DNA from: Prorocentrum cordatum
Taxonomy: Eukaryota
Length of the DNA stretch: 64,000 nucleotides
NCBI GenBank assembly: GCA_963575745.1
Contig: CAUYUJ010000270.1
Span: 186,001-250,000 of the forward strand
Direction: 5' to 3'
The stretch's first letter is position 1; each line of letters opens with the position of its first letter. Made by a program: the position numbers and the translations under genes. The notes under the pieces were generated by a model that ran no database searches, had not been told where the DNA came from, and saw only the letters and a list, made by a program, of their open reading frames with translations. Shown here piece after piece: positions 2,230-46,279 of the stretch.

Positions 2230-2556
2230 AACATCAGAAGGAACGCGATCCACCGTTGTCGGCATGAACAAGTTCTATAAAACGGGGGGTCGAAAACACG
2301 GCCCCCCCAACCCCCTCTGAAAGACATCTCTGGGGGGTGGGGTTCAGAAGGCAAGGGGACCACCTTCCCCCGAACCCTCCCCCACCAACCCATCCCCGTG
2401 GCAGACCCCGGAGTTCTGACCCCCCCCCCAGAAAATGATTCGGGGGGATCCACAAGGCCATCCCGCCACCCGCCCCCGACAATTATTCGGGGGGGTCCAA
2501 AAGGCCCCCCCCCCCGGAGAATTATCCGAGGGGTCCAACACCCCGCTACGAGGGCA

Positions 2557-2602
<46 letters not shown>

Positions 2603-2622
2603 CAACGCTGGCAAACGACGAC

Positions 2623-2661
<39 letters not shown>

Positions 2662-5508
2662 AACGAAGACGACGAACGACGAAAGACACCCACGACGACG
2701 ACGACGATGACGACGACGAGCGACACGACGACGACGAACACGACGACGACAACGACGACGCGTACGACGCCCACGACCACGCCGAGGACGGCGACAACGT
2801 CGTCAGCGGCGGCGCCGGCGCACCTGTCGCCAGCGCCCGCGCTTGGCGCCGGGCTTGATAGAATGCTATCAGGGTTCGATCTAACTGTAGAACAACCGTA
2901 TCAAACTTTGCCCCACCTCGAATAGGTATATAATTGGTGCCATCTAGCTCGAATCGAACTCTTGTACGGCTGGATCCAGCTCTAAAAGGACCCTAGCAAG
3001 GCTCGATCCAGCTTTGAAGGAATCCGACTAAGGCCCGATCCAGTTCGAAAGCCATCCTGATACTAGGGCTGGACCCAACTCGAATAAAACATGAAGGCTG
3101 TTTTTTTCAGCCGAAGCGTACAACAACTTCATCGATCTTAAACCGAATCCAATTCACATTGGATCCAACTCCACTTGATCCAACTCACAGAGAGAAGACG
3201 TTCCGTGGACGCTTACTTGGAACAATTCCATTGACGCATCGGAACCACCCATTGCGTCCCAAACAAAAGCCAGAACGCGACTGGATAACGCCCCACACAC
3301 ACACACGCACGCACGCACGCACACACATACACACACACACGCACACACACAAACACGCCAACCTATCTGAGAGGGGGCGTTCGAACAAGAGGGGGCGCGG
3401 GCCATGACCAGGAGGGCCCCTGAATTTCAGAGGGGGGGGGTCGAACCAGCCCCGCGCCCCATCTGGACTGCAGGGGCGACAACGACGAAGACGACGGCAA
3501 CGACGAACAACAGACAGCAACACGCAACATCAGCATTACAAAACGCAGAAAGAGCCAACAAGCGCAGATTCCAAATAGACCAGAAGGCTGACGCGACGTG
3601 GACTGGAGTGGATTGAAATAGACTGGACAAAGGTAGATTTGACTGGACTGGGGTGAAAAAAAGGCAATGAAAACCAAGCTCGCCCGTCACCGGGTTGCGC
3701 TCGCAACCGAAGCTGTGGGTGCGCGCCGAAACCTGCGCCGCGACACGTGGCGCGGGCGCCGCGCCAAGACGGCGCGGGCGCTTCGGGTGGCCTCGGCGCC
3801 CGTCGCAACGCAACCCAACAACGGGCGAAAACGTGGCGAGCTCGGGCGGGTCAAATCCCGACCGCGGGGGGCACACCCCACGTCTTGGACGCAAATCCGT
3901 GATCCTCCGTAGCGATGCGGCGGGCACGGGCGCCACGCGGAAGGGCGCGGACCTGCCCGCATCGCCTGCGGCGCGCCCCGACGCGCGCGGGCAGTGCGGC
4001 GACACGCCGCTGTTCGCGCGTGCGTCCGTCGCGCATCGGCGCCGAGGAAAATCGACTTGCCCTGGCCAGGAACGAGAGAATGTGCATGGGGAGAACGGGC
4101 AGGAGGATAAAATGAAGAGGATGGCGAGGAGGAGGAGAAGGAGGAGGAAGACGAGGAGGAGGAGGAGGAACGGGAGGAGGAGAGGACAAGACGGAGGAGG
4201 AAACAGAGGGCGAAGAGGACGAGGAGGAGGAGGCGCATCAGAGAGCGGGAGAACGCCTCCGCCAAGGCGACGAGGAGGACAGGAGGAACAAGTTACATAA
4301 ACTCGCATGTGGGGTCTCACCATCGGGATATTTTGTGCGTTTTGTAATGTTTATGTTGTGTGCTGACCGACAAAAGTCCGTCGTCGTCGTCATCGTCGTC
4401 GTCTTTGTCGCCATTGCAGTGTTTCGGGGGGCAGGGGCGGGGGGGGCCGTTTCGATCCCCCCCTTGACAGAGGGCCCCCCCCCCTGTTCGAACCGCCACT
4501 CAAGCGGGGGGGTACCCTCCCCCGGTTCGAACGCCCGTCCCCACCGATTCACCCCACCTTCACCTAACCGTTCGACCCCCCCCAGCGGCCAAGGAACGCG
4601 CCTTTCCAGGAATGATCAGACCGAGGCTCAACCCAGCTCAACAGCAATGCTTATAGAGTTGGACTCAGTTCCAGCACAGTCACTAGATGGCTCGATCCCG
4701 CTGCACTTGAAACATACGGGCCGGTCGTTACAGCGATGAATTCAAGACTACTAGAAACTCACTGGGAGCCGATCAAGCTCATATAGAAACCCACTGAAGC
4801 TGGCACTGGCACTACTAAGATTAACGAATGCTGGATCAAGCTCTGTCTCGAATCCGAGTAGGGCTCGACCCAGCTCTAACCTAACCGAATCCTGCCAGGG
4901 CTTCAGCCATCTTGAATAACATCCTTCCAGGGGGGAAGGAGCTCGCTCAAAACCCTCTTCGGACTCGACCTAGCTATGATGGAAGCCAAATAGGGTTCGA
5001 TCCAGAATCTTACTTGGGCTGGATCCAGCACGAGTGGAACCCTAGCGAGGCTCGGTTCAGCTCTAATACAAACCAACAGGGATGGCTCAAACTACTCTAA
5101 GAGAATTCCAGGGCTTGATCTAGGTCTCCTCGAATTCGACCCACAGCGGATTGGATCCAGATCGACTAGCATTCATCCAAGGTTCGACCCATCAAGCAAA
5201 TAATGCTACCCGGGCTGGGCAAAGTTTCGACAGAATCCGATCAGGGCCCCATCCAGCTTTCAAAGAACCTGCTGGAATCGCATCCCACTAGGGCTCAATC
5301 GTTTTCGGCGCGTCGTAGGCGTTCTCGTCGTCGTCATCGCCTTCGTCGTCCTCGTCGTCGCCGTAGTTGTCGTCGTCGTGGTCGTTGGCGTCGTTGTCGT
5401 CGTCGCCGTTGTCGTTGTCGTCGTCGGCGGCGTCGACATTGTCGTCGGCAACGTCGTGGTTGTCGCGCGTCGTCGGCGTTGTTAGCGTCGTCGGCGTCCT
5501 CGTCCCCG

Positions 5509-5553
<45 letters not shown>

Positions 5554-5980
5554 ACGTCCTCGTCGTCATCGTCGTCGTCGGCGGCGTCTTTGTCGTCGTG
5601 TCTGTCGTTGTCGTTGGCATCGGCGTCGGCGTCGGCATCGTCGTCGTGGTCGTTGTGCATCGTCGTCGTCGTCGCCGTTGTCGCTGTTTTCGTCGTCGTC
5701 GTTTGCTGGCGTCGTTTTCGTCGTCATTGTCGTCGTCATTGTCGTCGTCGATGTCGTCGTCGTCGTTGCCGGGAGGGGGGGGGGCTAGGGGGGAGGGTTC
5801 TGCAGGACCCCTCGAAGAATTGTCCCAGGGGGATGAGGGGGTCTGGACCCGTCGGAACAACTTTCGGGGGAGGGGGGGGGTCCGAACCCTTCCCCCCCCC
5901 GTCTGGTTTGAGGGGGGGTGAACCCACTACATACACAATGGCAGCAGCGGCAGAAGACGCTTTTTGAAACATCAGTCACG
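2230..5980. repeat. Nested imperfect inverted repeats (foldback-like) enclosing degenerate GGCTGGATCCAGCTC arrays
   Basis: Outer arms ~2230-2830 and ~5290-5980, (GAC)n versus (GTC)n plus GGGTCC..AATT motifs. Inner arms ~3370-3550 and ~4330-4590. Arrays at ~2850-3260 and ~4620-5300. Confidence 0.7.
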
Positions 5981-7738
5981 TTGGTATCGTTAATGCCAGG
6001 CGCAGGTCTGAGGCTGAATGGTAAATACTTGAATTTCCCGAGCTGACGTCTGCCGGGATAATATCACTGACACGATGCGACGTGGGTTCGGAAAAAATGA
6101 AGGTAACAAGCAACCGTGTTGATCGAGAACCAAAAGCCAAGAGCCCGAGAACATGCGAGCCACGGCGTGGCCTAGCGCGCCGTGCGCGACGTCGGCGTTC
6201 GGCATGCACTCGTTGACCCTCCAAAACGCCGCAGATCTGCGGTCAAACGCACCTGAAAACGCTACATCTCCTTGGCTCTAGCCTCTGCCCTTGGACTAGG
6301 CGTCAGGATTGAGCTACTCGGGCTGACGTCGAAGAGTGTGGGCGGGAAAGTGAAGCATGCGACAGAAACAGACCCGTCCCGGCCGCAGCAAGGAGGTCCC
6401 ATGTACGCACAGCCCACGCAAGCTGGGGCGTGACGCAAGGGTGATGCAGCACCTGCTTCGGGAACACAGGCGACGCCTCCAAAGTAAGCCCGCGCCGCCA
6501 AAAATGCAGCAGGTGGGGTCCGCGCCGCTCGCGGGGAGAAATTCGAAGCGGAACTGGAGGCATGGGACGCTGTCCCATTCTTGTCGCATTGGAATTTCGA
6601 TATCGGTCTTCTGTTGGGAAATTGTCCATCGTCGGAAACCGTCTGCTTGAGCCACAGCTGTGGGAACAATATGTGGTAGAGAAACTTGGGAGGACATGGG
6701 GAGTGAGGGCCACGGGCTGTTTTCTTCATGATGCGGAGGCTGGGAAGCAAGGTGAGATCAGAGCACGGTTGTCTTCACCATCTTCAGCAGCTTTCCATAC
6801 GATCATGCTGTTGCAGTGACAACGTTCCGCCAACGGGAGACATACGTCACCGGAGTGTCTTCTTAGAGCGGACTGCTTCTTCAGGAGAGGTCGTGGACAA
6901 CTTTCTCTACAAGGAGGTGGCGCCAAAGCCGCTGCCGTCCCCTTGAGGAAGGAGGGGGCAAACTGGAAGATGAGGATGATGAAGGGACGATTCGCCGTCG
7001 CAGCAGCCGCAATCGAGAGGCCGCCGCCGCCATCAGCCCTCGCCACCTATAGCTTTCTGAAGCCAGTGATTTGTCAAGATGGGTGGGCGAAGAAGGCGGG
7101 CAGAGGCAGTGAGAGAATGTGCGAGGGGAATGGGCGGTGATCAGTGTGCGTGCGGGGCGGATGGCACGGGCAAGGTGACTGCGAAAAGGGGACAATGGCG
7201 TAAGCTCTGAGCGCACGGCTTGGGAGGTGCAATCAGGGCCGCTGGCTAGGAAGGCAGCTGCAGACCAGGTGCGCCGACGAATGCTTAGCAGCAGCGTTCG
7301 AAACTGTTCGGAACAGGACCGCTATCCAGAATGAGCATGGACCAAGTGAGTTGACAAGTGGCCCAGCAACAATGAATAAAAGAGGCAAGATCGCTGACAA
7401 GATAAACAGCCGTCGACCAAGCGCGTCGACAGGAAGCCGGCGGCAGCGCGGGGACGGCTAGCCCCCCCCCCCCCCCAATTCTTGGGGCAGGGCGCTTGCG
7501 AGCGAGCAGAATCAGCAAGACGTGTGAGGAACGAGCGAACGAGACGAGCCGACCCCAGCGACCCTGCAGAAGCTCCTTTCGCGAGTGCGAATCCCACCAG
7601 CCCTCTGGGTACTTGTCCCACCTCCTGCCTTTCCCTGCTCGGGGTGTGACTGATCTCGTGACCGGCCGGCGTTCGCGTGCTCCCGAGCGGTCGCTGCGCT
7701 CGGCCGACTGCGACGCGTGGAGATCCACGGTGAACGCC

Positions 7739-10321
7739 ATGACGGGCGTCGAGGAAGAAGCTACAGAGAAGCGGGCCAACCTACACGCGAGTGCGGGGAC
7801 GGACGAGGACGCAGTGACTAGGGGGGAGCTCAGAGGACTCATCGGGGACATTGTCAGGGCGACGATGCAGAAGCAGTCCAGGAGCTCGAGTGCTGCGGCA
7901 GCGTCCAGCTCCGCAGCCGCTGGCAAGCCAGACGAGAAGGGCGAGGATCCGTGGCAGAGCTCGGATCCGTGGACAGCCAGCGGCGGAGAGAGTTGGCAGA
8001 GTCGGTGGTGGCAGGCCGACTCGAAGACCAGCTGGGAGGATCGGCAGCCCGATCCGAAGGACGGCTGGCAGAAGGACTCAGGCTGGTCTCACGACGCCGC
8101 CTGGACCCGCGGGACCGGGTCCCGACCCGAGCTGGCCAGCTGGTCCGGCAGCTGGGCAGGAGGAGGCGGCGCCTGGTCCAAGGGAGACTACTCAGACCCA
8201 CCTGCATGGCCAGGATGGGCACACTTCAGAGCATGGAAGAAGTCGCTCAGACGCTGGAATGCAAACACCGACGTGCCAGTCTGGCGTCGCTCCGAGAAGT
8301 TCCTTCGCCTGTTCGACTGGGCTTTCCAGGCGAAGTTCGAGGACATTCAGGAGCATCGTCTGACCGACGACGGCTGGATCGACATCGTGCTCGGCCGCAT
8401 GGACACCATGGCGGGCGAGCGCGAGGGAGATGACCTTCGCCGTGCAGGTCGACGAGCCTTCTTCGAGGCCAACCGCGAGGCGAAGGAGTCGCTGATCCAG
8501 TTCGTCATCCGGCGCGACGCCCAACTGCAAGAAGCTGAAGGACATGATCTATGGATGTCGCCCAAGCTGAAGGGCCTGCTCTTGGAGGAAGGCGCGTGCC
8601 TGTCCGCCCAGGGGCTCCAGAACTTGAGGACGCTCACCCTCGGGAAGCTGGACTACGAGAACGTCTCGTGGGCGCTCAAGCAGATGGACTCCGGCGGCAC
8701 GGAGCGTCTGCTCCCAGGGCGCGGCGCTGGAGCGATGCTGGCTGACGCGACGACTTCTGAGGGTTTAGGGGCTAGCGAGGCGTTGCCTGGTTTTCAGTCC
8801 CCCCTCCTCTCTCCTCCTCCCCCGTGGTCGCAGGGTCGGTCAGAGGGTACTGGCGACTTCCCGGCAGAGGACGAGGAGACTTTCTACGACGAAGACGACG
8901 AGGAGGAGGCCTCGGACGAGGAGGACATCGAGGCTCTGCTGGCCGAGCTCGACGATCTCGACGTGTCCGAGGATCAGGTGGATGAGGTGCTGGCGACGCT
9001 CGAGGCCAAGAACACCAGGACCTGGAAGCAGAACAAGGAGCTGAAACGTGCTGCTCGTCAGGACCGGGAGTATTTTCGGCCCGACTCCCGGGCGCCTCGA
9101 CCTCCTCGGGCACATCCGGCAGGCCGTCCAGGACGCGGCGGAGGCCGCGGGGATGGCGCCGGCGGTCGAGGCGGACGCGGCCGTGGCGGTCGTGGGTTCG
9201 ATCGACGACGACTCACGAGGGAGCAGCTGATCAAGGTGACACGCTGCGGCATCTGCAAGCAGAAGGGCCACTGGCATCGGGAGTGCCCAGAGAAGGACGG
9301 ACCCAAGGATCGCCGAGCTGTGAAGGATCACGGCCGAGGAGCATCCGCGTACATGTTCTCAGGCATCGTCGGCGAGGTCGGCGGCTCCGAGTTCGTGGCG
9401 ACGGTGGAGGCGGGCGCGGGCAGCCTTCCAGCTTGGGAGCAGGCACAGCTGGAGATCGAGTCGAGCGCGGTTCTCCTCACCACGTCCGCCACCCAGGGGC
9501 TCGTCGACCCAGGTGCCGGCAGCGACCTCGTGGGAGTCGGAGCGCTCAACCGAGAGTCTCGAGCCCTGGCAGAGATCGGGTTGAGGTACGTCGAGATACC
9601 CCAGGCCGACCGCCCGCTCAAGGCGGCCCACGGCGTCGGTGGAGCCGCGCGCGTGATCAATGTCATTCTCTTTCCGCTGTGCCTAGGCCAGACTTTTGGC
9701 ATCATAGAGACCACGGTGCTGGCGGACAATGTTCCGCACATCCTCAGCGTGAATCTTTTGGAGTTTCTCGAGGCCGTCATTGATCTGCCCAGGAACAGCA
9801 TGCAACTTGGGCGCCTAGGTCAGAAGGTGCCCCTCTGCCGTCTCAATTCAGGTCATCGTCTCGTGGAGATCGTGGGGCCTCTCGACCAGGAGGCAGTAGC
9901 ACCAGCAGCTGCGATCAAGAGGTACCCCTTTTTGCGTGCTGACTCGTTTCAGACTGCTGCAGGACAGTTCCCAGAGATGTCGGACGTTGGCGTGGTGACC
10001 GGCTACATTTCTCTCATCATCACCGTCGTCTTGCTGCTCATGCTGCTGCTGCGGGTCACGAAGGGGAGCTCAAGGGCCAGGACCAGGACTCAGAGGACGT
10101 CTAGGCCCAGGACTCAGAGCATCAGTTCGGTCGTCCACTCCAGGAATCGGGTCGACATCCAATCCGAGCACCAGGACGACCAATCGAGGGAGCTCCTCCA
10201 GTCATGGGCTCAGCTGAGCCCGAGCCAGGTTTTAGGATCCGTAGACAAGCTAAGGTGCAGAGGCCGAGGAGGTCTTCGAGAGGAAGGGTTCCCGAGAGCC
10301 CAAGAAGATGGACTGAACTGA
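7739..10321 (+). CDS. gag: Gag-protease polyprotein, running in frame into a small transmembrane ORF
   Basis: Within the 941-aa ORF 7496-10321; first ATG at 7739. Trp-rich N-terminus, gag-like PPAWPGW segment, RGG stretch, CCHC knuckle CGICKQKGHWHREC (9245-9286), aspartic protease LVDPGA (~9500-9517) followed by VPHILSVNLL. Confidence 0.88.
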   Translation: MTGVEEEATEKRANLHASAGTDEDAVTRGELRGLIGDIVRATMQKQSRSSSAAAASSSAAAGKPDEKGEDPWQSSDPWTASGGESWQSRWWQADSKTSWEDRQPDPKDGWQKDSGWSHDAAWTRGTGSRPELASWSGSWAGGGGAWSKGDYSDPPAWPGWAHFRAWKKSLRRWNANTDVPVWRRSEKFLRLFDWAFQAKFEDIQEHRLTDDGWIDIVLGRMDTMAGEREGDDLRRAGRRAFFEANREAKESLIQFVIRRDAQLQEAEGHDLWMSPKLKGLLLEEGACLSAQGLQNLRTLTLGKLDYENVSWALKQMDSGGTERLLPGRGAGAMLADATTSEGLGASEALPGFQSPLLSPPPPWSQGRSEGTGDFPAEDEETFYDEDDEEEASDEEDIEALLAELDDLDVSEDQVDEVLATLEAKNTRTWKQNKELKRAARQDREYFRPDSRAPRPPRAHPAGRPGRGGGRGDGAGGRGGRGRGGRGFDRRRLTREQLIKVTRCGICKQKGHWHRECPEKDGPKDRRAVKDHGRGASAYMFSGIVGEVGGSEFVATVEAGAGSLPAWEQAQLEIESSAVLLTTSATQGLVDPGAGSDLVGVGALNRESRALAEIGLRYVEIPQADRPLKAAHGVGGAARVINVILFPLCLGQTFGIIETTVLADNVPHILSVNLLEFLEAVIDLPRNSMQLGRLGQKVPLCRLNSGHRLVEIVGPLDQEAVAPAAAIKRYPFLRADSFQTAAGQFPEMSDVGVVTGYISLIITVVLLLMLLLRVTKGSSRARTRTQRTSRPRTQSISSVVHSRNRVDIQSEHQDDQSRELLQSWAQLSPSQVLGSVDKLRCRGRGGLREEGFPRAQEDGLN
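9977..10321 (+). CDS. Putative small single-pass membrane protein (accessory ORF A, 114 aa)
   Basis: MSDVGVVTGYISLIITVVLLLMLLLRVTK: ATG, ~20-residue hydrophobic stretch, then a basic tail. Preceded by a pyrimidine-rich tract ending in TTTCAG. Same frame as gag and overlapping the pol frame. Confidence 0.4.
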   Translation: MSDVGVVTGYISLIITVVLLLMLLLRVTKGSSRARTRTQRTSRPRTQSISSVVHSRNRVDIQSEHQDDQSRELLQSWAQLSPSQVLGSVDKLRCRGRGGLREEGFPRAQEDGLN

Positions 10322-10356
10322 CCGTTTCCATGATAATAGTGGCGGCAGTTGTCTTT

Positions 10357-10379
10357 TCCGTAGCCCACCTCGGCTCAAG
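10357..10379 (+). promoter_or_regulatory. Dinoflagellate spliced-leader-like sequence inside the retroelement
   Basis: TCCGTAGCCcacctcGGCTCAAG versus DinoSL DCCGTAGCCattttGGCTCAAG: first 9 and last 8 nt identical. Confidence 0.75.
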
Positions 10380-10453
10380 TCTAGCCTTTCTGGTGTTAGC
10401 TTTCTCAGTTCACGAATTTCTTGTGGTCCAGCAACAGCGCCTGGCCAGACTCG

Positions 10454-12079
10454 ATGGTTCTCGGAGGGCTGCTCCTGGCGTGGTTGGCGGTGCATCCTGT
10501 GCTCGGCGGAAAGAAGAAGGGAGAGTTCGGGACGTCGAGCAAGGGAAACCAAGGAGCGTGGGCCACTCAGGCGTTTCTGCGAGCACGCCAGTCTCGTCTC
10601 AACGGGGAGCGTGCTCCTGGAGAACCCGACTCGGACGGCTACGTCTGGGACAAGCCCTCGGCGGAGGAGACAGCGGCGGCGGCGGCCGAGAGCGACGCCC
10701 TGGAGGCGGCGGCGAGGCAGGCCCAAATCCAGGCAGAGGCGGATCAGGCAGACCGCGGGCCACCCACCGGAGGCGCGTCGTCCTCAGGGAGTGGTCGGGC
10801 AGCGAGCCATCAGGCCCGGCCGGGCCAGCCAGGGCCTCAGCCGCCCTTGCCTCCAGAACCACCTCCGGGGTACACTGGCCCATACCCCATGGTGGTCGAC
10901 CGATCGTTCAACTCCCAGGCGGCAGCGGCAGCGGCGGCAGCAGCAGTGCCTCCAGCAGTTCAGCAGGCAGCGATCAACACTCCGGTGGCATCGACCCCGC
11001 CACCAGTGAAGCCTCCTCCTCCAGGAACGATGCACATGCGGGGCACCACGGCGCTGCCTCCCCTGACGGGGCCCGCTGCAAGCAAGCCACCGCCCAAGCC
11101 GCCACCTACGCAGCTGGCATCGACTCCCGAGCCGTCGATCCCAGCGAAGCCGCCTCCCGGCCCAGTCAACGAGTGCGAGCATCCAGAGTCGTGCATCCGA
11201 TACTACGGGAACCAGCACGGGTCAGGTTCGAGGTGCACCCGGTGCCAGACCCGACTGGTGTGGATTCCCCGGGGCCAGGGGATGGCAGCGTGTCAAGAAC
11301 CACCGCAGTCAGCTGCCGAGGCAGCGCGGTCAGCGGCGGCATCGGCCCGGCGTGCTGTCAACATCCTGCAGGAGAGCCCAGGGTTCCGAGAGGGCGGGGC
11401 TGCCCTAACTACGGTGAACTCCCTGGGCACGCTGCTTCAGAGCCTACAGTGGCAGCTGCAGGAGATACCAGAGGGGATCCGCGCCTTCGGCCGGGTCCAG
11501 GAAGTGCTGGACCGTATGATTCAGGTGGCGACCGACACGCAGAGTGCGCCGACTCAGGTCCAGGAGGGACTCATGCAGATTCACCAGGTCCTGATGGGAA
11601 TCCAGGGCCACTTGGTGTCCCTCGAGGACTTCGGCGAGAAGCTCGACACGATGGAGTCCAGGATGCTCAACCTCGAGCAGAGCATGGGCCAGCTGGGATA
11701 CATCATCATGCAGGTAGGCCAGGGCGTGGCCGGACTACTTCACGTACATGGAATTCAGCAACTACATGGTGGTCAGGCCCCGGACGACCCCTGGGCGCCG
11801 GGCCCGACAGGGCCCATCGAGCCCAGAGGAGAAGGAGACTCGTCAGGCAGTGGCGGACACGGGCCTCACGAGGGCTCGAATTTCCAAGATGGTGGAGCAC
11901 AGCCGTCTACCACGACGCCGCCGAGCGACAGCGGCGGACACGGCGAGGAGTACAACACGACGCTCGCCACGACGACGGCCGACCCGAGCAACTGGTGGCC
12001 CCTGCCACCGATCCCGGAGGTCGCGACCGATCAGGAGCAGGAGTGGGAGCTGGTCAGCAACCAGGGGGAGCTCTACTGA
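10454..12079 (+). CDS. Accessory ORF B (541 aa from ATG 10454): signal-peptide-like N-terminus, Pro-rich region, CxH...GNxH...CxxC finger, heptad coiled coil; overprinted on the pol frame
   Basis: ORF 10421-12079 reads as a well-formed protein (MVLGGLLLAWLAVHPVLG; CEHPESCIRYYGNQHGSGSRCTRCQTRLVW; LQSLQWQLQ...LDTMESRMLNLEQSM), while the overlapping pol frame here has shifted-frame composition rich in R/G/A/P/H. Confidence 0.7.
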   Translation: MVLGGLLLAWLAVHPVLGGKKKGEFGTSSKGNQGAWATQAFLRARQSRLNGERAPGEPDSDGYVWDKPSAEETAAAAAESDALEAAARQAQIQAEADQADRGPPTGGASSSGSGRAASHQARPGQPGPQPPLPPEPPPGYTGPYPMVVDRSFNSQAAAAAAAAAVPPAVQQAAINTPVASTPPPVKPPPPGTMHMRGTTALPPLTGPAASKPPPKPPPTQLASTPEPSIPAKPPPGPVNECEHPESCIRYYGNQHGSGSRCTRCQTRLVWIPRGQGMAACQEPPQSAAEAARSAAASARRAVNILQESPGFREGGAALTTVNSLGTLLQSLQWQLQEIPEGIRAFGRVQEVLDRMIQVATDTQSAPTQVQEGLMQIHQVLMGIQGHLVSLEDFGEKLDTMESRMLNLEQSMGQLGYIIMQVGQGVAGLLHVHGIQQLHGGQAPDDPWAPGPTGPIEPRGEGDSSGSGGHGPHEGSNFQDGGAQPSTTTPPSDSGGHGEEYNTTLATTTADPSNWWPLPPIPEVATDQEQEWELVSNQGELY

Positions 12080-12444
12080 GGTCTCCCACTCTGTCTCAGG
12101 CCAGCATTTTAGAGCTGTCATCGTGCTTTGTGCAGTGTGGTTGCGCGAGACCCCATGCTGCCAGCACGACTTCTGGCGCCGAGAGCGCAGTGACTGAGAC
12201 GCAGAGTTTTGCTCCTCCTCCTCCTCCTCACTCCAGGCCCCCTCAGGCTCCTAGGGCTCGGAAGCGACCGGAGACCCTGGAGCGAGGGGCCCAGTGGACC
12301 GACGGGGACCGTCACAACGACGACCACGAGGTTGCGTGTAGCAAGAGGGCCCGAGAGGCTCTCGAACGTAGGGCCTGCGAGCAGCTAGGTGAGACGCTTG
12401 CCACCGAGGGACCTTTCGACCGAGGGCGTCGGGCCAAGACGGCG

Positions 12445-13071
12445 TTCATGGAAGTTTTCTCCCCGCACCGTAAGGCCCCTGAGGTGGCCAGGCGTGGGGC
12501 CCCAGTGGCCTCGGATCCCAGCTGGGATCTCAAGACCGGGTGGGATGCGTCTAAGAAGTCAGAAGTTCGTCGCCTCTGGAGGCGCATTAGGGAAGAGCAG
12601 CCCGAGACCATATGGCTGTGCTCGGAATGTCGGGTGTTCTCTGCGATCAATCGTTTAAATCGTCATCGGGTCGATCCGATCGCGTGGCAGAAATCGGTGA
12701 CAGCCGGTCTACGCGATCTAACTCTGTGCATGGAGATAGCCCTCTTCCAACACAGTAAGGGGCGGTACTTCATCTTCGAGCATCCCCTATACGCCTCCTC
12801 TTGGGACACGCGTGCTGTGCAGCTCGTGCAAGGGCTCGAGGGAGTCAGACGGCTGCGCATCGACATGTGTGCGTTCGGACTTCAAGTAGACAAGAGGGGG
12901 CCCAACAAGAAACCAACCGGCCTCCTCTCCAACCACCCCAGGGTGCTCCGGGACCTCGATGGCCACCTATGCACGGGGGGGCACCAGCATGCGTTGCTCG
13001 AGGGAGGCCATGTCACCACCAAGGCCAGCAGGTACCCCCCAGCCTTAGTTAGGAAGGTCGCCCGAGCCGTG
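12445..13071 (+). other. C5-cytosine DNA methyltransferase-like domain inside Pol
   Basis: Ordered motifs: FMEVFSP (I, divergent), WDLKTGWD, IWLCSECRVFS (IV, candidate catalytic Cys at 12628), FIFEHP (VI), DMCAFGL...KKPTGLLSN (VIII-like), ASRYPPALVRKV (X-like). Confidence 0.7.
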
Positions 13072-16000
13072 TCCGAGCAGTGGAGTGGGGCGGGCAACCG
13101 AGGGCCCTCCACCTGGGCGGAGCTGGCGGAAGATGCCTTCCCGGAGGATGATCTGGGTGATGCGGAGGTCGGATCGGAAGTAAGCGACGAGGAGGGACTC
13201 GACGAGCCAGAGACCAGACCAGCCCCACGTGAGAGGAAGACCGTCCCAGAACCAGAGCCCTCCGAGGAGGAGAAGCGTCTGGTCTTCAAACTCCATGTGA
13301 ACATGGGACATCCGGAGAATCGGAAGTTCCTGCGAGTCCTCAGAGCGGGTGGAGTCAAGAGACATGTTCTCACATGGGTGCGTGATCTTTTCAGATGTTC
13401 AGAGTGTGCCGAGAGGTCGAGAAGCGGCACTCATCGCCGAGTTGCCCTCCCCAGGACGTTCCGTTTTAATCACATCGTGGGGGTGGATCTCTTCTGGGTG
13501 GACTTCCAGGGAGGCACTCACGGGTTTCTCAACATCGTCGATCACGGTTCCAACCTCCAAGTTTGCGCCAGGGTAGCCGACGCTCGTGCGGCAACCGTGT
13601 GGCGAGCTCTTGTCCTGGCCTGGATTCGACCTTTCGGGGCCCCACACTATCTTATCTCGGACGGGGGCTCGGAGTTTGCTGGGAGGTTTGCGAGAGGAAC
13701 CGAGCAGTGGGGTGTCTATCACCATGTCTGCGATGCCGACTCACCGTGGCAAAACGGCCGTGTCGAACGTCACGGGGGTTGGGTTAAGGACCGACTTAAG
13801 GCCGAGATCGAGTCGGGATCGGCTCTCCCCGCCACGCTGGACGAGCTCGACGAGCTGGTGTCGGAACTGGTCGCCCACAAAAACCGTTTCTGGCATCGTG
13901 GAGGGTTCTCCCCCCTCCAGCTGGTTTTCGGAGAGAACCCTAGGCTTCCCCACGACCTGCTGTCCGACGACAGTAGGGGACTCCCAGGATGGCAAGATGT
14001 GGTGCGCTCCCCTATGGAGCAGGACGAGGCTGGTGCGGAGTTTGCTAGATCCCAGAAGATTCGAGATGCTGCGCGTCGTCTTGCCATCGAGGTGACCTCT
14101 CGGGATCAGGTCAGCCGAGCCTCCCGGGCCAGGACTGCGACGACCAGGACCTTCTCGCCGGGCCAGTGGGTGTTTGTGTGGAGGCACATGTCTCGTACTT
14201 CCTCCAGGGCCGATTCCCTGGGACGACGCCGGGATGGTTGGGCTGGTCCGGGCGTCGTGGTCCTCCATGAAGCCGGGACTGTTTGGGTTGCCGTCCGAGC
14301 GCGCCTTTGGAAGTGTTCGCCAGAGCAGATACGTCTGGCGAGTTCGGACGAGGAGTACGGATTGCAGCTTTCTCAGGATCCCAGGTGGCAGGAGTTATTG
14401 CAGCAAGCCAGGACTCGTCGGGCCTCGGCCGTGGACGTCCAACGAGAGGGAGCCCCGCCAGAGGACGCCTGGGACCGACCTCTGGGCCAAGAAGAGGATT
14501 CGGCCCCTCGTGTTGCGGGCCCTCCGGGCCCCGAGCCAGGTGGGCCAGAGGCCCCGGTCCGTCGTGAGAGCCCCTCGGTCCCGGGGCCCCCGTCGGGCAC
14601 GATTCGGGCGGCTGCTTCCAGGGCCTTTCGGGCTGGGTCCGAGTTGGGGCAGGAGTCTCACGCAGGTTCTGATGTCGCGCAGGCTGGCAGCATCCGCACC
14701 AGGCTTCCATCGATTGCCGAGAGCGAACCATCGACGGGAGATTTGTCCAGAGAAGTGACGCCAGGGAGAGAGGAAGGAAATCCCGGTCCCTCTACTGACG
14801 CTCCTGCTCCTTTGTCTTCCCCTCTCCCGCCTGTCGCCCCTCCTTCCACTGTTTCCCCTCTTTCGCCTCCCCCTGAACCTCCTCAGGCCACGGCGGGCTC
14901 GGCACCTCGGCCCCGAAGGGTGCTGACTCAGCCGGAGGACACGCCTTGGTGCATCCGCGCCCGGGCCGAGGCAGCCCGAGCATCCAGCTCGCCGCCAGAG
15001 TTCAAGCCGGCGAAGCTGGAGTCAGCCGACCCGTCGTCCTCGTCTCCGTCCGCCCCTCCGGTCTCCAGTGGTAGTGGTGGTCCTCCTCTCTCTCCTCCTC
15101 CGGGCCTCCCCGCTCCGTCTCCTACCCCAGGGCCGGGGCCCGGGACCAGGATCACTGCCGGCTCCGAGCCGCGCGTGTCAGTTGCCGATAAAGTCCAGGA
15201 GATCGAGGCCGGACGGGCTCGTGCCCGGTCACGCTCTCCCATGAGAGATGAGAGTTTTTCCGAAGGAGTGTTTTGGGTGGTTCCCGGGGCCGACGGCGTC
15301 GCCACCGTCCCAGCTGAGCAGCAGGAGCCGACGAGAGCCGAGGAGCATGACGGCGGCATCTTCGCCGCGAGCCGAGGCGGCGAGGTCTCGCTGAGAAATC
15401 TTTCTCCGGCCGACCGGGCCAAGTTTGAAGTGTCCGATGCTAAGGAGTGGGAGGCCATGAAGGCGACAGGTGCGGTAGAGGTGGTGGCCCCAAGCAAGGC
15501 ACGAGTCATCCGTCGCGAGCAGCCAGACCGCATCATCTCGAGCCGGATGGTCCGCCGCTGGAAGCCCCAGGAGGGCACCTTCGCCGCCCCCGACGCCAAG
15601 TCGAGGTGATGCGTCCACGGGCATAAGGACCCTGACTCCGGAGCCCTCGAAATATATGCCCCCACTCCTCAGACGTCGTCAATCATGATGTTCATCCAGA
15701 TAGCCATGAGCCTGGGTCTTCTATGTGATATCGCCGATGTCAAGAATGCTTTCTGCCAATCGGATAGAATGCATCGAGCACAGGGCGAGATCTACGTAGA
15801 GCCCTGTGAGGGGATCGTGCTAGAGCCCGGATCCCTGATTAGGCTGTTGGTCAATGTCTATGGTTTGAACGATGCCCCTATGGCCTGGAGGCGTACCGTT
15901 GTCAAGTATTTGGAGGCCCATGGGTTTGTGAGGTCCCTGCTGGAGCCCTGCTGGTGGATGCGCTACGATGACAAGGGGCGCATCGCCAACATGATACTGC

Positions 16001-17604
16001 TGGAAGTAGATGACTTCTTCATCGGGAGCTCAGACCAGGTCTCCCGGGACTGGATTAGGGGGGTTCTGGAGTCCAGGTTCAAATTCGGGAAGTATCGGGA
16101 TTGCCAGGCGGGCACGGTAGACTTTGCAGGCCGAAGGATCACCGTCGCCCCAGATAAGGCAGTGATCGACATGGAGAAGTACATTTCAGAAGAGATCCGC
16201 CCTCTGTCCATGTCCAAGGGGCGCCTGGCTCGCAAGGACTCCCCCCTGGAGCCTCAGGAGTTCAAGGCACTGCGGTCGCTCGTATACAAGTTCAATTGGT
16301 TGGGCCGTGAGGTCCGACCCGAAGCCGCAGGTGTAGCCAGCATCCTGGCCAGCAAGCTGAACCAGGCCAGGACCGGGGATGTGATCACGGCCAACAAGTT
16401 GGCTCGCCATCTGCGCTCTACGGCTTCCAGGGGACTCACTGTGTGGCGACTCGACCCAGACAGGATGGCCTTTTTGTCTTTCTCGGACGCCGGTGGCATT
16501 GGCTCCACCGACGGCCTGGATGACGAGCGTGGGCTGCCGGTCGATCCCACACAGGGAGCTTGGATGGTCCTGGCGGCCGATCGATCTGTGTTGGACAACC
16601 GTGCAGTCCGGGCTTCGATTCTAGGTTGGAGGTCGTCCAAGCTAAGACGAAAGGTGCCATCCACACTGCTGGCGGGAGATACGCAGGCTTTATCCGCAGC
16701 AGTTGCAGAAGTAGAGTTTTTACAGATCATGTATCGGGATGTGGTCTTCCACGATGTGGACGCTCCCGATTGTCGTCGAGCCTCCGGACCATTTACAACC
16801 GTGCTGCGACGAGACTGCTCTCTCGGATCTCGTGAGAAGCAGGTGCATGTGGTCGACGCCAAGTCGATCTACGATACGATGCAGAAAGAGGGCAATGCAT
16901 GCGCGCGGGACCGGCGCACGGCCATTGACCTCGCCATCATCTGTGAGTCCCTGGAGCGAGCTCGTGGCCATGTTCGCTGGATCCCACACGGGCGGATGCC
17001 AGTGGACGCTCTCACCAAGGAGGACGTCACGAAGTGCAATGCCGCTTTGTTCGATTTAATGTCCCATGGCCGCCTGATTTTAGTCGACGAGAGCTCAGAG
17101 GTGGCGAGACGCCGCTCCGAGCCGCAGCTCAAGAGTCGATCACAAGCAGCTTCGAGAGAAGAACTCGCTCGGGAGTCTCAGCCCACATGGATCCAGTTCC
17201 TGTCGGGGAGTTCTGCCGGTGGTGGTAGTAGTGGTGGTGTCGGTCCTCCTCCCCCCTCCTCTCTCTCCTCAGCTGAATCATCTATGCGCAGTTTGCCCTT
17301 GCCATCTCCGCTCTTCCAGTAATAATTTTCTCGTGTACAGTTTCTGTCCTTTCTTATCCCCTCTCCGTTCAAGTAGAGAAGGGGGCCGTTCCAGCGCAGG
17401 AACGGATAGTTGCTTTTAGTTGAGCCCAAGAGGGTGCTAAACCTAGGAGAAGTCGGACGGGTGTGACTGATCTCCAGAATTTACGTATTAGGTTTAGCAT
17501 TTGAGATCTTTACCTTGGTAGTCCTACCGAGTTGCAGCGTGTGCTCGGTGTACTGTTACCCTCTCTGGCTCAAGCCCAAAAACGTTCATCCAATCCTGTG
17601 CTGC

Positions 17605-18563
17605 CACAGGGGGGTGAACATCCCCCCCCCCACCCCTCCCTGCGTCTGGACGGGCTCCCCCGCGAGGTGTCAGAGGGTCCGTGTTGGTCCAAGATGGTTC
17701 CAAGAGGGCTTCCGAGCGCAAGATGGCTTCCAACATGGCCCAAGACAGTGGTAGATGGGCCAAGATCGCCTCCGACACACGTCCAAGAGGCCTCAAGACG
17801 ACCCCAAGACGGTTGCAGGTGCCCTCCGAGGCTTCCGACGACCCCCCAAAAATGCCAAACTCATTCAAAAACCTAAGGACAATCAATGTGTTGTGCCTTC
17901 TCGCTATTTCGCCTCCGATGGGCTCTTCAAGCCTCAAAATGGCCCAATGACGTCCCAAGATATCCCCAAGAGGGGTCCGAGAGGGCCCCAAAACGGCCCC
18001 AAGAGCGCTCCAAGAGCGGACCAAGAGGGCCCCAAAACTGCATGTTGAGCCTCCGAGGGGGGGGGGCCAGGAATTAAGGACCCCCCTCTTTTTTAGCGAA
18101 AGGGTCCAAGACGGCCCCACGAGGCCCCTCAGGCATCTCACAAGAGCCACAAGAAGGCACCCAGACCCCCCAGAAGAGCCCCCCAAAGGCCCGAACACGC
18201 CCCCAAAGAGCCCTAAGGAAAGGCCCTAAGAGGACCTCAGGAGAGCCCCAAGAAAGAGCCCCAGGAGGCCCCAAGAGGGGCCCAAGATAATACCAAGAGG
18301 GCCCCAAGATGCCTCCCAGTTTCGGAACGCACGATAGTTTAATCTGCAAATCAGTCCAACAGACATTGCAAGTCATCGAAACACCCCTCGCCCATCATCG
18401 AAGCACCATCGTAGCTTGCATCGGTTTCCATCTTAAACTCCAATGCGGGAAGCTATGTGTGATGCTTGTTTTCTCGAAGACGGCTGCGCGACTGCATGCG
18501 TCCTGCCGCCCCTGATTCACCAACTCCCCTGCTGATCGTTTCTGGATGGGCTGGTGGCGATAC
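17605..18563 (+). mobile_element. Non-autonomous Helentron-like element, copy A (5' truncated, 3' end split by an insertion)
   Basis: CCAAGA/GGCCC-rich body homologous to copies B-D; ends ATCGTTTCTGGATGGGCTGGTGG; the rest of the end is at 18846-18878. Confidence 0.6.
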
Positions 18564-21471
18564 TTGTTTTTGTGATCGCGACCGCGAGCGGGCACCCGCG
18601 CGGCGTCGTGAGGTCGAGCGAAGACCGTAAGCCGGTGGGCACAGCGCAACTGTCGCCGGCGAGACGCGGAAAAAGCAAGGGGCCACTACGAGGAGGCTGC
18701 GCTAGCGAGCGGCGTCGTAAGGTCGTGCGGAAAAAGAAGGGGCCGCTACGCCGAGCCAGCCCTACACGGCACCGCGCACCGCGGGCGAAGCAGGAGGGGG
18801 CGAAACGACGAAGAAAGCGAAGAGCAAGAGAGAGCGACAACGGAAGGCTGGTGGGGATACGCGAGGCGTCAAGCATTATTTTTCGAAAGGGTGCCTTCAT
18901 TTCAAAATGGAGCTCTCGCTCGAGACATCCTCGCGCTTGTATGACCCGAAGTTCCAAATGGTGCAACACTTCCACGGATGGAACGCCGACCCTTTCCAAA
19001 ACTGAGCTGTCACTGGACACCTGCTTGAATCATCCTACCTCTTCGCGTTTCTCCCAGCTTGAAGGATGGCGGGCGAATCCTTTGAAAAACTAGGTCTCGC
19101 ACGAGGCCCACTGGGCGCTTGTCATTCAAGGGGGTCGCTTCTCACAAGGGAAGGGAATATACTTTTGGGGATCTGTGCGAAGGGGATTTGGGATGGGAGG
19201 GCGTGTTGGAGCAACATGGTTCATGCATCCTGGATTTACTCTGATCATCCCCCCTCTCCTCCCACTTAAGACTATCCTTCTGCTCCTCGTCCACCTGCCC
19301 CCCTCCTCCGCGTAGCGCGGGGGCTCCTCATGCCGACCTTGCGCATCGACATCATTATGCAGCCGCCGAGGAACTGCGTTGCGCGGCGTCAGGGCAGGAG
19401 GCATTGAAGGATAAGGACGAAGACTGGGAGACTGATGATGATGATGATGCGCCCGCCGGAGTGTCCCGATAAGAGGGGAGGTGGGTGAGGAGGACGACGA
19501 GGAAGACGAAGAAGAAGAGGGCGAGGAGGAAGAGGATAAACTAGCAGGAAGTGAAACAGGACGAGGAAAGCGAGAACGAGAAGGAGAACGAGGACGACGA
19601 GGCCGACGGTGAGGGGAAGAAGGAGGAGGAAAGAGGGACGACAGTGAGGAGGTGGAGGAGCCAGAAAAAGAGGGTGGGCACAGGCACGGAGGACACGGAA
19701 CGGGCGGGGCAAGTGCGCCGAGGCGTTCCCTGGCCAAACTCCATCAGGTCTCCAGAGGGCGGAAGGAGGCCAAAGATGCTCAAGGAAACGAGTTCCTCGA
19801 TCTTTCGGGGGTCCCAAGACCGTGTGGTGAGAGACCGCGCGGCAACTTCGAAATCCCAAAGGATTTCACCGCACGGTCCGTCACTTCACAGTGTTGGGAC
19901 CCTGGCGGCCCCAATCGACCGTTACATCCGCGGAGAACGACTCGACTCGCAAAATCATGCGGTGACCACGGATACCACCGACTCACCACACGGCAAGGTC
20001 ACCATTCCCTTCGGGGGGCCCCGAATCTTTGGGTCTCGGTGGCGGGAGCAGGCCGAGAACGCGATCCTCGATCATCTAGCCTTGACCCGCGATCCTCGGT
20101 CCAGAGGCCTCGATCCTCGATCACCCTTGGTCCTTCTGGGTCTGACGAAAAAGGGGGCTAATAGAGGGGGGGTTGGCGAATCAACTCACGTAGCTGTTTT
20201 TTTCTGGCGCCTCCTGGCACCGGGAGGCGCCAGTGTTGAAGGAAGGCGCCCGACGGCAGGGCGGAAACCAGCTGCACGCAGCAGACTTCGTTGCCCCTGC
20301 CCCTGTCCGTCATTAGTGGGAGCCCAAGTGATCCTCGTCGCCTGGCTGTTCGGTCACTACTCGGGCCTGGGGCAGCCATTTGGGGCGATACGGACACCCG
20401 AAGAACGCTCTCGACAAGGCGCAGCCGCTGGAAGGCACCCCGAAGCTGGAGGACCGCCGAGAACCGGCGAAACCGTCCGAAGACACCCGTCGTCCGAAAC
20501 TGTTTCCTTCAGCCCGTGTGTGCAACTCCCGGGGAGCGATTCCTCGGCCCGTGAGCAGCCAGCCTGGCTGCCACCGCAACGGCAAGGAGGGCGAGGACCG
20601 CACGGCCGGGCCTGCACGCTTGGCGGCCGCGGGCGGGCGGGCCGCCCGCGGGCCTCGTGCAGCTCGGGGTTGGCGCCGCCGCCCGCAACGCCGTCGAGGT
20701 CGAGGCCCTCCTGCCGGCAGCTTTGTCGACGTCGTCGCGGTGCCGCTGCCCACCCGCGCCGTCGCCACCGCTGCCCGAAGTCGCCACCGCTGCCGCCTCG
20801 CGGCGGCGGCCCTCAGAGGGCGGGGTGCCGATGCCCAGGCGGCCCTCGGCAACACGCGCGTGCGGCCGCTGCCACGGCGACCGCGGCGGCAGCGGCGGCG
20901 ACTGCGGCGACGATGGCGACGACCGCCGCCCCCTCGGGAGAGCATGGCCTCCTCGGAAGAGCAGGATCGATTCTCGAGGCTCGAGGTTGTTGACTGTCTC
21001 TGCCAAGGGACGTGCCCCGCTCGGCGGCTCGCATGCAATGAGATGGCGGAAATGAGCTCACTGAACACAAACAATGCCCAAGGACGGTCCCAACCAACTG
21101 GGCAAAACGGCAACGCGGATTGTTTCTGCGTCCCTTCTAGGTTCTCCCGCGGGCCTCCAGAGGTCCCCCGGGGACCTCCTGAGGCCCCTGGTGACCTTTG
21201 GAAACCTCCAGAGAACTCTGGATTCTCTGGAGGCAGTCGTCGCAGCCGCCGTCGACGTCGTCGTCGAGGCTCGAGTGTCGAGTTTAGGGGAAGTTGTGGG
21301 GCCCCTTCGGGCATCCAGGAGACATCTCGTCGCCACAGCTAGATTCGCCTCGGAATCCTGGCGAACAAGCACCCCAAGAGAGGCCCGTGAGTCGTCGTGG
21401 TCGTCGTGGTCGTGGTCGTGGTCGTGGTCGTGATCGCAGGCGTAGGCGTAGGCGTGGTCGTGGTCGTGGTG

Positions 21472-21509
<38 letters not shown>

Positions 21510-23799: not shown

Positions 23800-24002
23800 A
23801 ATCGGCTTCGGAAGAGTCTCTGAATCTGACAAACTGCCGTTTCGCTCGGGAGATCCTCGACAACTCGGCTTCGGAGGGGACTCTGAATTCAAGAATGGCA
23901 GCATCGCTAGGAACATCCTCGACTAATCAGCCTCGGAGGGGACTCCGAATCTCAATCATGACAGTTTCGCTCGAGACATCCTTGACAATCTGGCTCGGAG
24001 GG
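23800..24002 (+). repeat. ~62-nt degenerate tandem repeat, about 3 units (CTTCGGAGGGGGACTCTGAAT...ATCCTCGACAA)
   Basis: Direct reading. Confidence 0.7.
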
Positions 24003-24720
24003 CCAACGTGGCCCCAAGAAACATTGCGACGATTGGTATCGACCATCGTCGAGGCAGCATCCCTGACACCCACTGATTGCAAACTCTGCGTGCAAGCTTC
24101 CCCGCTGCGACTCCGTTCTGGGGGCTCACCAAAACATGGTTTTGGAATCAACGTGGCAGCTTCATTGCCGATGTTGCAACATGCGTGACAGGAACGGGAT
24201 TGGGCGCACATCCGGTGTCGCTCTGGTCGCGGCGCCGTGCTCATTTCCCTTGAGAATTGAACATTTATTCGGGCTTGGCGCGCATTTTTCGCTCGCCTCG
24301 TCGACGCGCGAGCAACAAACAACTGTCGCTCTCTCCAAGGCGCCGTGCAGATTAAGCCTGAAAGTAGCGGTCCTGCATCGGCGGGACGCATCTTTTTCAG
24401 CGCGGCGCATGAGTCGCCTTCGACGTGCTCATCGGAAATTTAGCCGCCCGAGAGAATGCTAACTGGTGCTCTCGCCGCAGCGTCGCGCAAGAACTTTCTG
24501 AAGATCCGTTCCCGCCCGTGCGCGGCCCGCGCTCTGTTTATACCTCGCTAAGCCGTCGGACGCGGGACCGCGCGCGAGCACCTTCCGTTCGCTAGGTGGG
24601 AACGCATGTCACGCCTAATGTCACGTTGTGCCCCCATCGATTCTGATATTATGGGGGGGAGAGTGAGACAGGGCGGGGCTTGCTGTCTCGTTCGCCCTGG
24701 CTAACTCGACCTTACCTGTA

Positions 24721-46244: not shown

Positions 46245-46279
<35 letters not shown>

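Follow-up and report, generated by a model that had tools for sequence, protein, structure and literature searches.

Retrotransposons that encode cytosine DNA methyltransferases (DNMTs) are known among the long interspersed nuclear element (LINE), DIRS and Gypsy groups, in which de Mendoza et al. (2018; PMC5890265) counted such domains by means of the Pfam family PF00145. The elements named in the parts of that study drawn on here are SymbioDIRS-Dnmt3 and SymbioLINE-Dnmt of Symbiodinium and KnitGypsy-Dnmt3 of Klebsormidium. According to the same parts, DNMT domains located inside Pol, as in SymbioDIRS-Dnmt3, methylate CG sites de novo in yeast, and retrotransposon DNMTs have been linked to the unusual CG methylation of Symbiodinium, which extends over almost the whole genome. 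Copia elements are given there as the most abundant retrotransposons of Symbiodinium, and the Symbiodinium Copia is stated to be one that 'lacks any DNMT domain'. Here we describe a Ty1/copia-type element in a 64,000-nucleotide stretch of the Prorocentrum cordatum genome (assembly GCA_963575745.1, contig CAUYUJ010000270.1, positions 186,001 to 250,000, forward strand; hereafter the window, whose numbering is used throughout). Ahead of its integrase, the Pol region of this element contains an additional domain, termed domain X, which in all probability has a cytosine-methyltransferase-type fold.

The parallels with the described elements are that a cytosine-methyltransferase-type domain is carried inside a retrotransposon, within Pol in the case of the DIRS and Gypsy elements, and that its catalytic residues are kept across many copies; the role proposed for those domains, in the sections of PMC5890265 used here, is self-methylation of the cDNA. 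Unlike domain X, those domains are recognized by PF00145 and, as presented in these sections, group with Dnmt3 or with an orphan DNMT clade. Domain X, in contrast, lacks both the glycine-rich loop (G-loop) and the target-recognition domain (TRD) of these enzymes, and is found in a Ty1/copia element beside a DDE integrase. The existence of DNMT-bearing LINE, DIRS and Gypsy elements had been noted in a first-pass annotation of the window, made from its sequence, and is confirmed by this source.

Among copia elements of protists, the portions used here of the reports on the dinoflagellate SmTCL (PMC5776459) and the diatom CoDi (PMC9998398) elements describe a reverse transcriptase (RT), an integrase (IN), an RNase H (RH) and long terminal repeats (LTRs), and mention no extra domain. 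The element from P. cordatum resembles both, as there described, in having IN ahead of RT-RH and an RT of the RVT_2 type, and differs from them in the added domain X, in its long low-complexity linkers and in that LTRs were not found. A paper on a brown alga describes, in the part used here, a DNA transposon with a ParB-methyltransferase gene, which represents a different case. The full-text literature searched, which left out most subscription journals and supplements, yielded no account of a methyltransferase-like domain in a copia element. Transposon-borne DNMTs as such are thus already known; what is new is a cytosine-methyltransferase-type domain in a further class of elements, copia, and with an unusually reduced architecture.

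The Motifs of Domain X

Domain X lies in a 220-residue segment, of which the limits given in the first-pass annotation (12445 and 13071) correspond to residues F9 and V217. That annotation had read six motifs in the order typical of C5 cytosine methyltransferases, in frame with the integrase. All six are present in the translation of 12301-13200, at EVFSP (12451-12465), WLCSEC (12613-12630), FEHP (12775-12786), MCAFGL (12865-12882), KKPT (12907-12918) and YPPAL (13033-13047). They span 12451-13047 of an open frame shared with the integrase zinc motif (HVNMGH, 13294), inside the open reading frame (ORF) 10105-15609. The features of the domain are as follows, with counts referring to the 131 aligned relatives described below:

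12421..13080, + strand: domain X, about 210 residues, predicted C5-methyltransferase fold (AlphaFold2, Foldseek, 3990 relatives)
12451..12471, + strand: motif I-like E-V-F-S-P-H-R, family E-x-F/Y-S-P-P-R (conservation, codons)
12526..12528, + strand: Asp36, invariant (131/131), just past the second beta strand, which comprises residues 29-35 (alignment, AlphaFold2)
12613..12642, + strand: motif IV-like W-L-C-S-E-C-R-V-F-S, family S-P-P/E-C-x-x-F-S (conservation, codons)
12775..12786, + strand: motif VI-like F-E-H-P, with Glu120 (129/131) and Pro122 (131/131); opposite E-N-V of DNMTs only in a low-confidence alignment
12865..12918, + strand: motif VIII-like M-C-A-F-G-L ... K-K-P-T, with Cys150 (129/131), Gly153 (116/131), Lys164 (130/131) and Thr166 (127/131)
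12970..12990, + strand: Cys/His cluster C-T-G-G-H-Q-H, with Cys184 (126/131), His188 (108/131) and His190 (130/131)
13033..13047, + strand: Y-P-P-A-L, where the last helix begins (residues 207-219 in the AlphaFold2 model), a motif X-like position, with Tyr205 (118/131) and Pro206 (105/131)

The motif I-like stretch has a His (codon CAC) instead of an 89%-conserved Pro, and is placed opposite the D-L-F-A-G-x-G-G of DNMTs only in a low-confidence hhalign alignment. In the motif IV-like stretch, the candidate catalytic Cys70 is encoded at 12628-12630, and Ser68 (TCG, 12622-12624) replaces a 97%-conserved Pro. The earlier reading that the Pro before the catalytic Cys has become Ser, by a codon one transition away from CCG, is right as to the substitution and the codon but not as to the position: the Ser stands at -2 relative to the Cys, and the residue at -1 is Glu (GAA). 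Glu120 is placed on a strand in the AlphaFold2 model. The Cys/His cluster occupies the place of the TRD of DNMTs, and its residues Cys184, His188 and His190 could, together with Cys150, form a putative zinc site.

A Large Family with Strongly Conserved Residues

An exhaustive phmmer search of 1.84 billion 50%-identity cluster representatives, with the 220 residues as query, recovered 3990 proteins at E <= 1e-3, of which 1300 also pass E <= 1e-10 and 27 pass E <= 1e-30, a degree of sequence likeness that is far beyond what chance would be expected to give. The same residues matched no Pfam family and, in a single-sequence search, no PDB sequence, while an NCBIfam scan of 40 family members yielded only scattered single chance matches. 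Within the window, tblastn found no other copy of the domain.

The context of domain X was surveyed by scanning relatives against Pfam. Among the long relatives (>= 900 residues), 33 of the 46 listed or found earlier were scanned: RVT_2 was detected in 8, rve in 10 and CCHC knuckles in 7, 13 had no match at E <= 1e-3, and neither another RT family nor PF00145 matched any of the 33 at this threshold. The 107 shorter relatives contained rve in 5 cases, RVT_2 in 1 and a GRF zinc finger in 2, and four further relatives contained RVT_2 in 2 cases and DUF7869 in 1. Domain X precedes rve by 100-320 residues in all nine proteins for which both positions were tabulated, and in at least three others (P0082, P0084 and P0150) it is RVT_2 that follows domain X, at a distance of about 100 residues; several relatives carry gag-protease (PR) and X-IN in one ORF. 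The usual place of domain X is between protease and integrase, and at times directly ahead of RT. We are highly confident that domain X stands for a large and conserved family, as yet without a name, within the Pol of a clade of Ty1/copia elements.

The second arrangement, in which domain X stands ahead of RVT_2 instead of the integrase, is listed for P0005, P0082, P0084 and P0150; the presence of two arrangements suggests either shuffling of the domain within Pol or two separate insertions. Since domain X also co-occurs with DUF7869 (P0275, E 5e-21) and with GRF zinc fingers (P0080, E 4e-8; P0134, E 0.003), it may not be restricted to copia polyproteins.

For an analysis of conservation, we aligned 131 near-full-length domains with a hidden Markov model on the residues of the window copy, 24 partial ones having been dropped from 155 domain matches in 153 proteins. 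These domains are likewise 50%-identity representatives and are typically 30-40% identical to the window copy. Nevertheless, Asp36 and Pro122 are found in all 131, Cys70, Lys164 and His190 in 130, Arg17, Glu120 and Cys150 in 129, and Glu11 in 128. Next come Pro68, Trp128 and Thr166 (127 each), Pro61, Gln110 and Cys184 (126 each), Asn171 (124), Gly40 (123), Ser14 (122), Pro16 (116), Pro15 (109) and His188 (108). Position 13 is aromatic throughout (F in 79, Y in 51 and W in 1). The residue immediately before Cys70 varies, being Pro in 83 and Glu in 32 domains, such that the family signature is P-x-C as against the Pro-Cys of DNMTs. Such constraint across representatives this diverged suggests an enzyme, or else a precisely built ligand-binding site, and not a spacer.

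With respect to the motifs of DNMTs, the family retains a Cys at the place of motif IV, within a P-x-C-x-x-F-S that follows the fourth strand, a Glu at the place of motif VI (E-H/Q-P), and a basic residue at the place of motif VIII, in a Lys-x-Thr. It also retains the aromatic residue of motif I and the Asp after strand 2; in class I methyltransferases, the place after strand 2 is where an acidic residue classically binds ribose. Motif I is divergent, as had been noted at first pass, but judging from the aligned relatives its S-P-P-R form is a trait of the whole family and not a defect of the window copy.

The Predicted Fold

We modeled two members of the family with AlphaFold2: the window copy, from an alignment of 40 sequences, and relative P0015, which has the canonical C-P-P-C, from one of 58. 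The first model reached a mean predicted local distance difference test (pLDDT) score of 95.0 and a predicted template modeling (pTM) score of 0.91, and the second a pLDDT of 96.0. A Foldseek search of the PDB with the window model returned 10 matches at E <= 1e-3 (best E 3.2e-4), with query-normalized template modeling (TM) scores of 0.40-0.56, and all 39 rows listed are C5 methyltransferases, namely MET1, DNMT1, DNMT3A/B/C, S. pombe Dnmt2 and EhMeth. The P0015 model gave 54 matches at the same threshold, and all 40 rows listed are again C5 methyltransferases. Across the listed rows of both models, which also include ZMET2, the Foldseek probability is 0.97-1.00 and the query-normalized TM score is 0.37-0.60. 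No other methyltransferase or Rossmann class occurs among the 39 + 40 matches listed. The structural comparison by which the first-pass annotation had asked to be judged thus found similarity to C5 methyltransferases, and its suggestion of a C5-methyltransferase-like domain is supported at the level of the fold. On the strength of these models, domain X very probably has a reduced C5 cytosine methyltransferase fold of about 210 residues.

The catalytic domains in the structures of DNMT3A/B, DNMT1/MET1 and Dnmt2 constitute both the best and the only fold class among the matches listed. They share with domain X the order of the motif-like elements I, IV, VI, VIII and X, with a Cys after the fourth strand and a Glu on the fifth. 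These catalytic domains measure about 270 residues or more as against the ~210 of domain X, and the latter has S-P-P-R for F-x-G-x-G, P-x-C for P-C, E-H/Q-P for E-N-V, K-x-T for R-x-R and a Cys/His loop for the TRD. These putative residue equivalences were drawn from collinearity and the succession of secondary-structure elements, and not from superposition. As the profile comparisons presented below are not significant, the case for homology to DNMTs rests on the fold and the order of motifs.

Small viral proteins provide a closer match in size. A search of the predicted viral structures in BFVD gave 5 matches at E <= 1e-3 (best E 2.1e-6); of the top 10, seven are named cytosine or DNA methylases and three are unnamed, and the two best, with 210 and 218 residues, have TM scores of 0.60-0.63. 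Examples, with names as given in the database annotations, are a putative cytosine DNA methyltransferase of Tetraselmis virus 1 (218 residues) and a putative DNA methylase of Lactococcus phage P087 (212 residues; TM 0.48-0.49). Such proteins resemble domain X in size but are stand-alone and only 11-15% identical to it. A language-model search of the ESM Atlas brought up 30 unnamed look-alike clusters, the nearest one bearing a Pfam domain having PF00145 at 0.86, which we treat as a lead only.

The Element and the State of the Window Copy

An ORF map of the window, drawn from stop to stop with the standard code, shows three long ORFs on the + strand: 7406-10321 (frame 2), 10105-15609 (frame 1) and 15610-17322 (frame 1), the last two being parted by a single TGA. 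The order of the element is gag-PR, a variable linker, domain X, an acidic linker, IN, a Pro/Ser-rich linker and RT-RH, i.e., a Ty1/copia arrangement with domain X as the one extra domain. Its parts other than domain X are:

7406..10321, + strand: gag and protease-like ORF in frame 2, with one weak CCHC knuckle (ORF map)
10322..12420, + strand: variable linker, with a shift from frame 2 to frame 1 somewhere inside (no detectable homology)
13081..13293, + strand: acidic linker between domain X and integrase (translation)
13294..13407, + strand: integrase N-terminal H-H-C-C zinc motif (HVNMGH ... CSEC)
13483..13746, + strand: integrase catalytic core, rve (PF00665, E 5.4e-5, under the gathering score)
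15607..15609, + strand: in-frame TGA at the start of RT (sequence, alignment of relatives)
15610..17322, + strand: copia-type reverse transcriptase and RNase H region (PF07727 RVT_2, E 1.7e-15 at 15646-16194)

The copia Pol setting proposed at first pass is thus borne out by a copia-type RT (RVT_2) with rve upstream of it, the configuration by which Ty1/copia elements are recognized. The zf-CCHC matches in the first ORF are weak (E 0.08-0.34). When the polyproteins of 47 long relatives were compared with the window by tblastn, they aligned in frame 2 over gag-PR (bins 7800-9900, i.e., to about 10200), in frame 1 from 12000 to about 14600, spanning domain X and the integrase, and again in frame 1 over 15300-17300; relative P0019 is 46% identical to the RT region across 15382-17154. 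The linker at about 10200-12000 had no tblastn match from these relatives, and neither its frame 1 nor its frame-2 ORF at 10400-12079 had a Pfam match. The acidic linker has a similar counterpart in the relatives, ahead of their K-L/V-H-x-x-x-G-H motif. The frame-2 ORF just mentioned (10400-12079, + strand), in the frame of gag-PR, would code for 559 residues of partly coiled-coil-like look and matches neither Pfam nor the relatives.

At nearly all conserved positions, the window copy matches the family. The departures are P16H (codon CAC, where 116 of the 131 relatives have Pro) and P68S (codon TCG, where 127 have Pro and none has Ser). In 11 relatives, the place of the TGA at 15607-15609 is taken by Trp (5), Leu (3), Phe (2) or a gap (1). 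Further, stops separate gag-PR, in frame 2, from X-IN-RT, in frame 1, a change of frame that might, however, reflect a programmed frameshift. LTRs were sought in three ways. A blastn comparison of 1-12000 with 12001-30000 gave nothing at E <= 1e-5, a self-comparison of the whole window gave no direct repeat pair around 7406-17322, and a sensitive comparison of 3001-8200 with 17001-23000 gave at best 47 nucleotides at 72% identity (E 0.005). A search of the window for tRNA genes, as a clue to the primer, gave none.

Because of the TGA in RT, the change of frame after PR, the lack of detectable LTRs and the two substitutions P68S and P16H, this copy is most likely inactive, and Ser68 is most simply read as the mark of a dead copy whose family is functional. 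The first-pass annotation had left the choice between a dead copy and an altered chemistry of the family; the damage to the element favors the former, and altered chemistry is accordingly the less favored cause of Ser68.

Proposed Function and Alternatives

The explanation that we put forward, and whose chances as a whole we regard as about even, is that domain X is a conserved C5-methyltransferase-fold domain of copia Pol which in intact elements is likely to act as an S-adenosylmethionine (SAM)-dependent enzyme, the copy in the window being inactive. In intact elements, domain X would be translated within Pol together with PR, IN and RT and would travel with the latter two, in line with the packaging suggested at first pass; it would hence be present where the cDNA is made. 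It would flip a pyrimidine, the C6 of which would be attacked by Cys70 with the assistance of Glu120. Most likely, a methyl group would then pass from SAM to the C5 of cytosine, either on the cDNA of the element itself or near the integration site. This proposal parallels the SymbioDIRS-Dnmt3 domains and follows what has been proposed for the DNMT-bearing DIRS, LINE and Gypsy elements; by this analogy, SAM-dependent DNA methylation by domain X is a plausible activity, to which we grant an even chance at best.

Several observations weigh against this explanation. In place of the F-x-G-x-G loop, which binds SAM in DNMTs, the family has S-P-P-R; the Pro-Cys dipeptide is not conserved in it (Pro at -1 in 83/131); K-x-T stands where motif VIII of DNMTs has the R-x-R of its Q-x-R-x-R; and the TRD that in DNMTs precedes motifs IX and X gives way to a loop, some 35 residues long, that contains Cys184, His188 and His190. 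For comparison, the motif I glycines (G95 and G97) and the P176-C177 of motif IV are invariant in nine reference DNMTs, comprising E. coli Dcm and eight named phage DNMTs. The structural matches are moderate, with TM scores of 0.4-0.6, a root-mean-square deviation of 5-10 A and 8-15% identity in the structural alignments. The AlphaFold2 model has one strand fewer ahead of the Cys strand than do DNMTs, and the lack of this strand in the model may take away part of the adenine pocket. On the experimental side, two classes of transposon DNMTs gave no methylation in yeast, according to the part of PMC5890265 used here. The ratio of observed to expected CpG dinucleotides, 0.87 in the element and 0.93 in the window, is uninformative on methylation in either direction.

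To these points is added the weakness of the link at the level of sequence profiles. PF00145 does not match the window copy (E <= 1) and is found in only 2 of the 107 short relatives, in both under the gathering score (E 4.6e-4 and 0.047) and covering only profile positions 26-76 and 55-76, the region of motif IV. The family profile gave 8 weak matches to PDB sequences, of which three are Dnmt2, with DNMT2 at the top at E 0.66. An hhalign comparison with a profile of the nine reference DNMTs reached only E 0.044 and a probability of 1.2% over 22 columns of motif IV, and one with E. coli Dcm alone, also confined to motif IV, is not significant (E 0.099). The search for relatives of Dcm had given close orthologs only (>= 74% identity among the 120 listed), and these were not used for the profile. 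A global alignment of the family with the DNMT profile did not succeed. The profile-level matches to DNMTs, whether by family profile, hhalign or PF00145, all fall on motif IV. A permissive hhalign alignment, to which no statistical weight attaches, pairs E-V-F-S-P with D-L-F-A-G, C-S-E-C with F-P-C-Q and F-I-F-E-H-P with F-V-L-E-N-V, collinear as motifs I, IV and VI and in agreement with the motifs assigned at first pass.

The foremost alternative is that domain X derives from a DNMT but is no longer a SAM-dependent methyltransferase, its base flipping and Cys chemistry having been put to another use. Such uses might be covalent or tight binding of the cDNA or the target DNA (e.g., for tethering the integrase), cofactor-independent C5/C6 reactions on cytosine or uracil, or transfer from another one-carbon donor. 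C5 methyltransferases without SAM are able to deaminate cytosine or to exchange C5 substituents. The family-wide replacement of the glycine loop by S-P-P-R (Ser14 in 122, Pro15 in 109, Pro16 in 116 and Arg17 in 129 of 131), the missing TRD and sheet strand, the failure of PF00145, the Lys-x-Thr in place of Arg-x-Arg and the constant position beside IN in the 9/9 proteins would all fit such a loss of methyl transfer. However, Asp36 at the end of strand 2, the aromatic residue of motif I and Gly40-Trp41-Asp42 are most simply explained as a nucleotide cofactor pocket, and the small viral proteins that share the size of domain X at a TM score of about 0.6 are annotated as cytosine methyltransferases. 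We therefore consider both this alternative and the uses listed for it possible, if rather unlikely. A bolder form of it, which we would call improbable, is that a very large, as yet unrecognized clade of copia elements, probably of marine protists, has a minimal DNMT-derived enzyme performing a reaction other than SAM-dependent methylation, by way of the S-P-P-R loop and a zinc-knuckle-like recognition loop. Equally speculative is the nature of that reaction: some other C5 modification might be written, exchanged or removed, or a covalent Cys-DNA intermediate might be formed that guides integration.

Domain X might instead be an RNA cytosine-5 methyltransferase of the Dnmt2 type, acting in the particle on the primer tRNA or the genomic RNA. 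Dnmt2 accounts for three of the eight weak PDB sequence matches, including the top one, and for some of the fold matches, and a small domain without a DNA-type TRD, co-translated with RNA-handling proteins, would suit such a role. Yet these sequence matches are not significant and are confined to motif IV, and the better fold matches are to DNMT3, DNMT1 and MET1, which leaves an RNA-directed activity a quite unlikely prospect. That a Pol domain without relation to DNMTs, either Rossmann-like or a structural spacer, mimics the order of motifs would agree with the absence of a significant profile link, with TM scores of only 0.4-0.6 and with the tendency of AlphaFold models to drift toward common folds, but is very improbable given that two independent models bring up only C5 methyltransferases among the 39 + 40 matches listed, as do the named BFVD matches, that the few sequence matches fall exactly on motif IV, and that 98-99% of the 131 diverged domains keep the Cys, the Glu and the Lys.

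Whichever activity applies, a copia clade does carry a domain of predicted methyltransferase fold with conserved catalytic-type residues, which spans thousands of diverged sequences and escapes surveys based on PF00145. If the domain is active, transposon-borne cytosine-modifying enzymes are more numerous and more diverse than has been assumed, and copia elements belong in the question of who methylates these genomes. With its ~210 residues and neither glycine loop nor TRD, it would also serve as a minimal DNMT scaffold supplied by nature, on which to probe what base flipping and the binding of a cofactor require. Should it not be a methyltransferase, the DNMT fold would have been recruited to a new job beside the integrase, and, should a non-SAM reaction prove true, this would be a new class of transposon-borne nucleic-acid-modifying enzymes.

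Other Repeats in the Window

Outside the element, the window contains an inverted repeat pair of 709 nucleotides at 95% identity (28978-29680 and 32330-33032) around a 1.5-kb tandem array (30275-31770), the latter having an 18-nucleotide unit, GAGCGCCGAAAACCAAAA, and a higher-order period of 271 nucleotides. Together they look like a large palindromic repeat structure or one bounded by terminal inverted repeats. About 400 nucleotides directly downstream of the RT-RNase H ORF (17622-18027) recur at about 73% in both arms of the inverted repeat (32412-32821, and 29189-29598 in inverted orientation). The stretch represents a dispersed repeat and is no LTR of the element.

Long imperfect trinucleotide arrays, each of 65-230 copies and of the types (ACG)n, (TCG)n, (CCT)n, (TCA)n and (GGA)n, lie at 2557-2799, 5325-5766, 26860-27053, 45682-46382, 46667-46938 and 58327-58749. 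A tandem duplication of about 850 nucleotides at 78% identity occupies 37337-38181 and 38292-39133. Further tandem repeats have units of 89 and 102 nucleotides (47274-48147) and of 231 nucleotides with a poly-G run (54842-55311).

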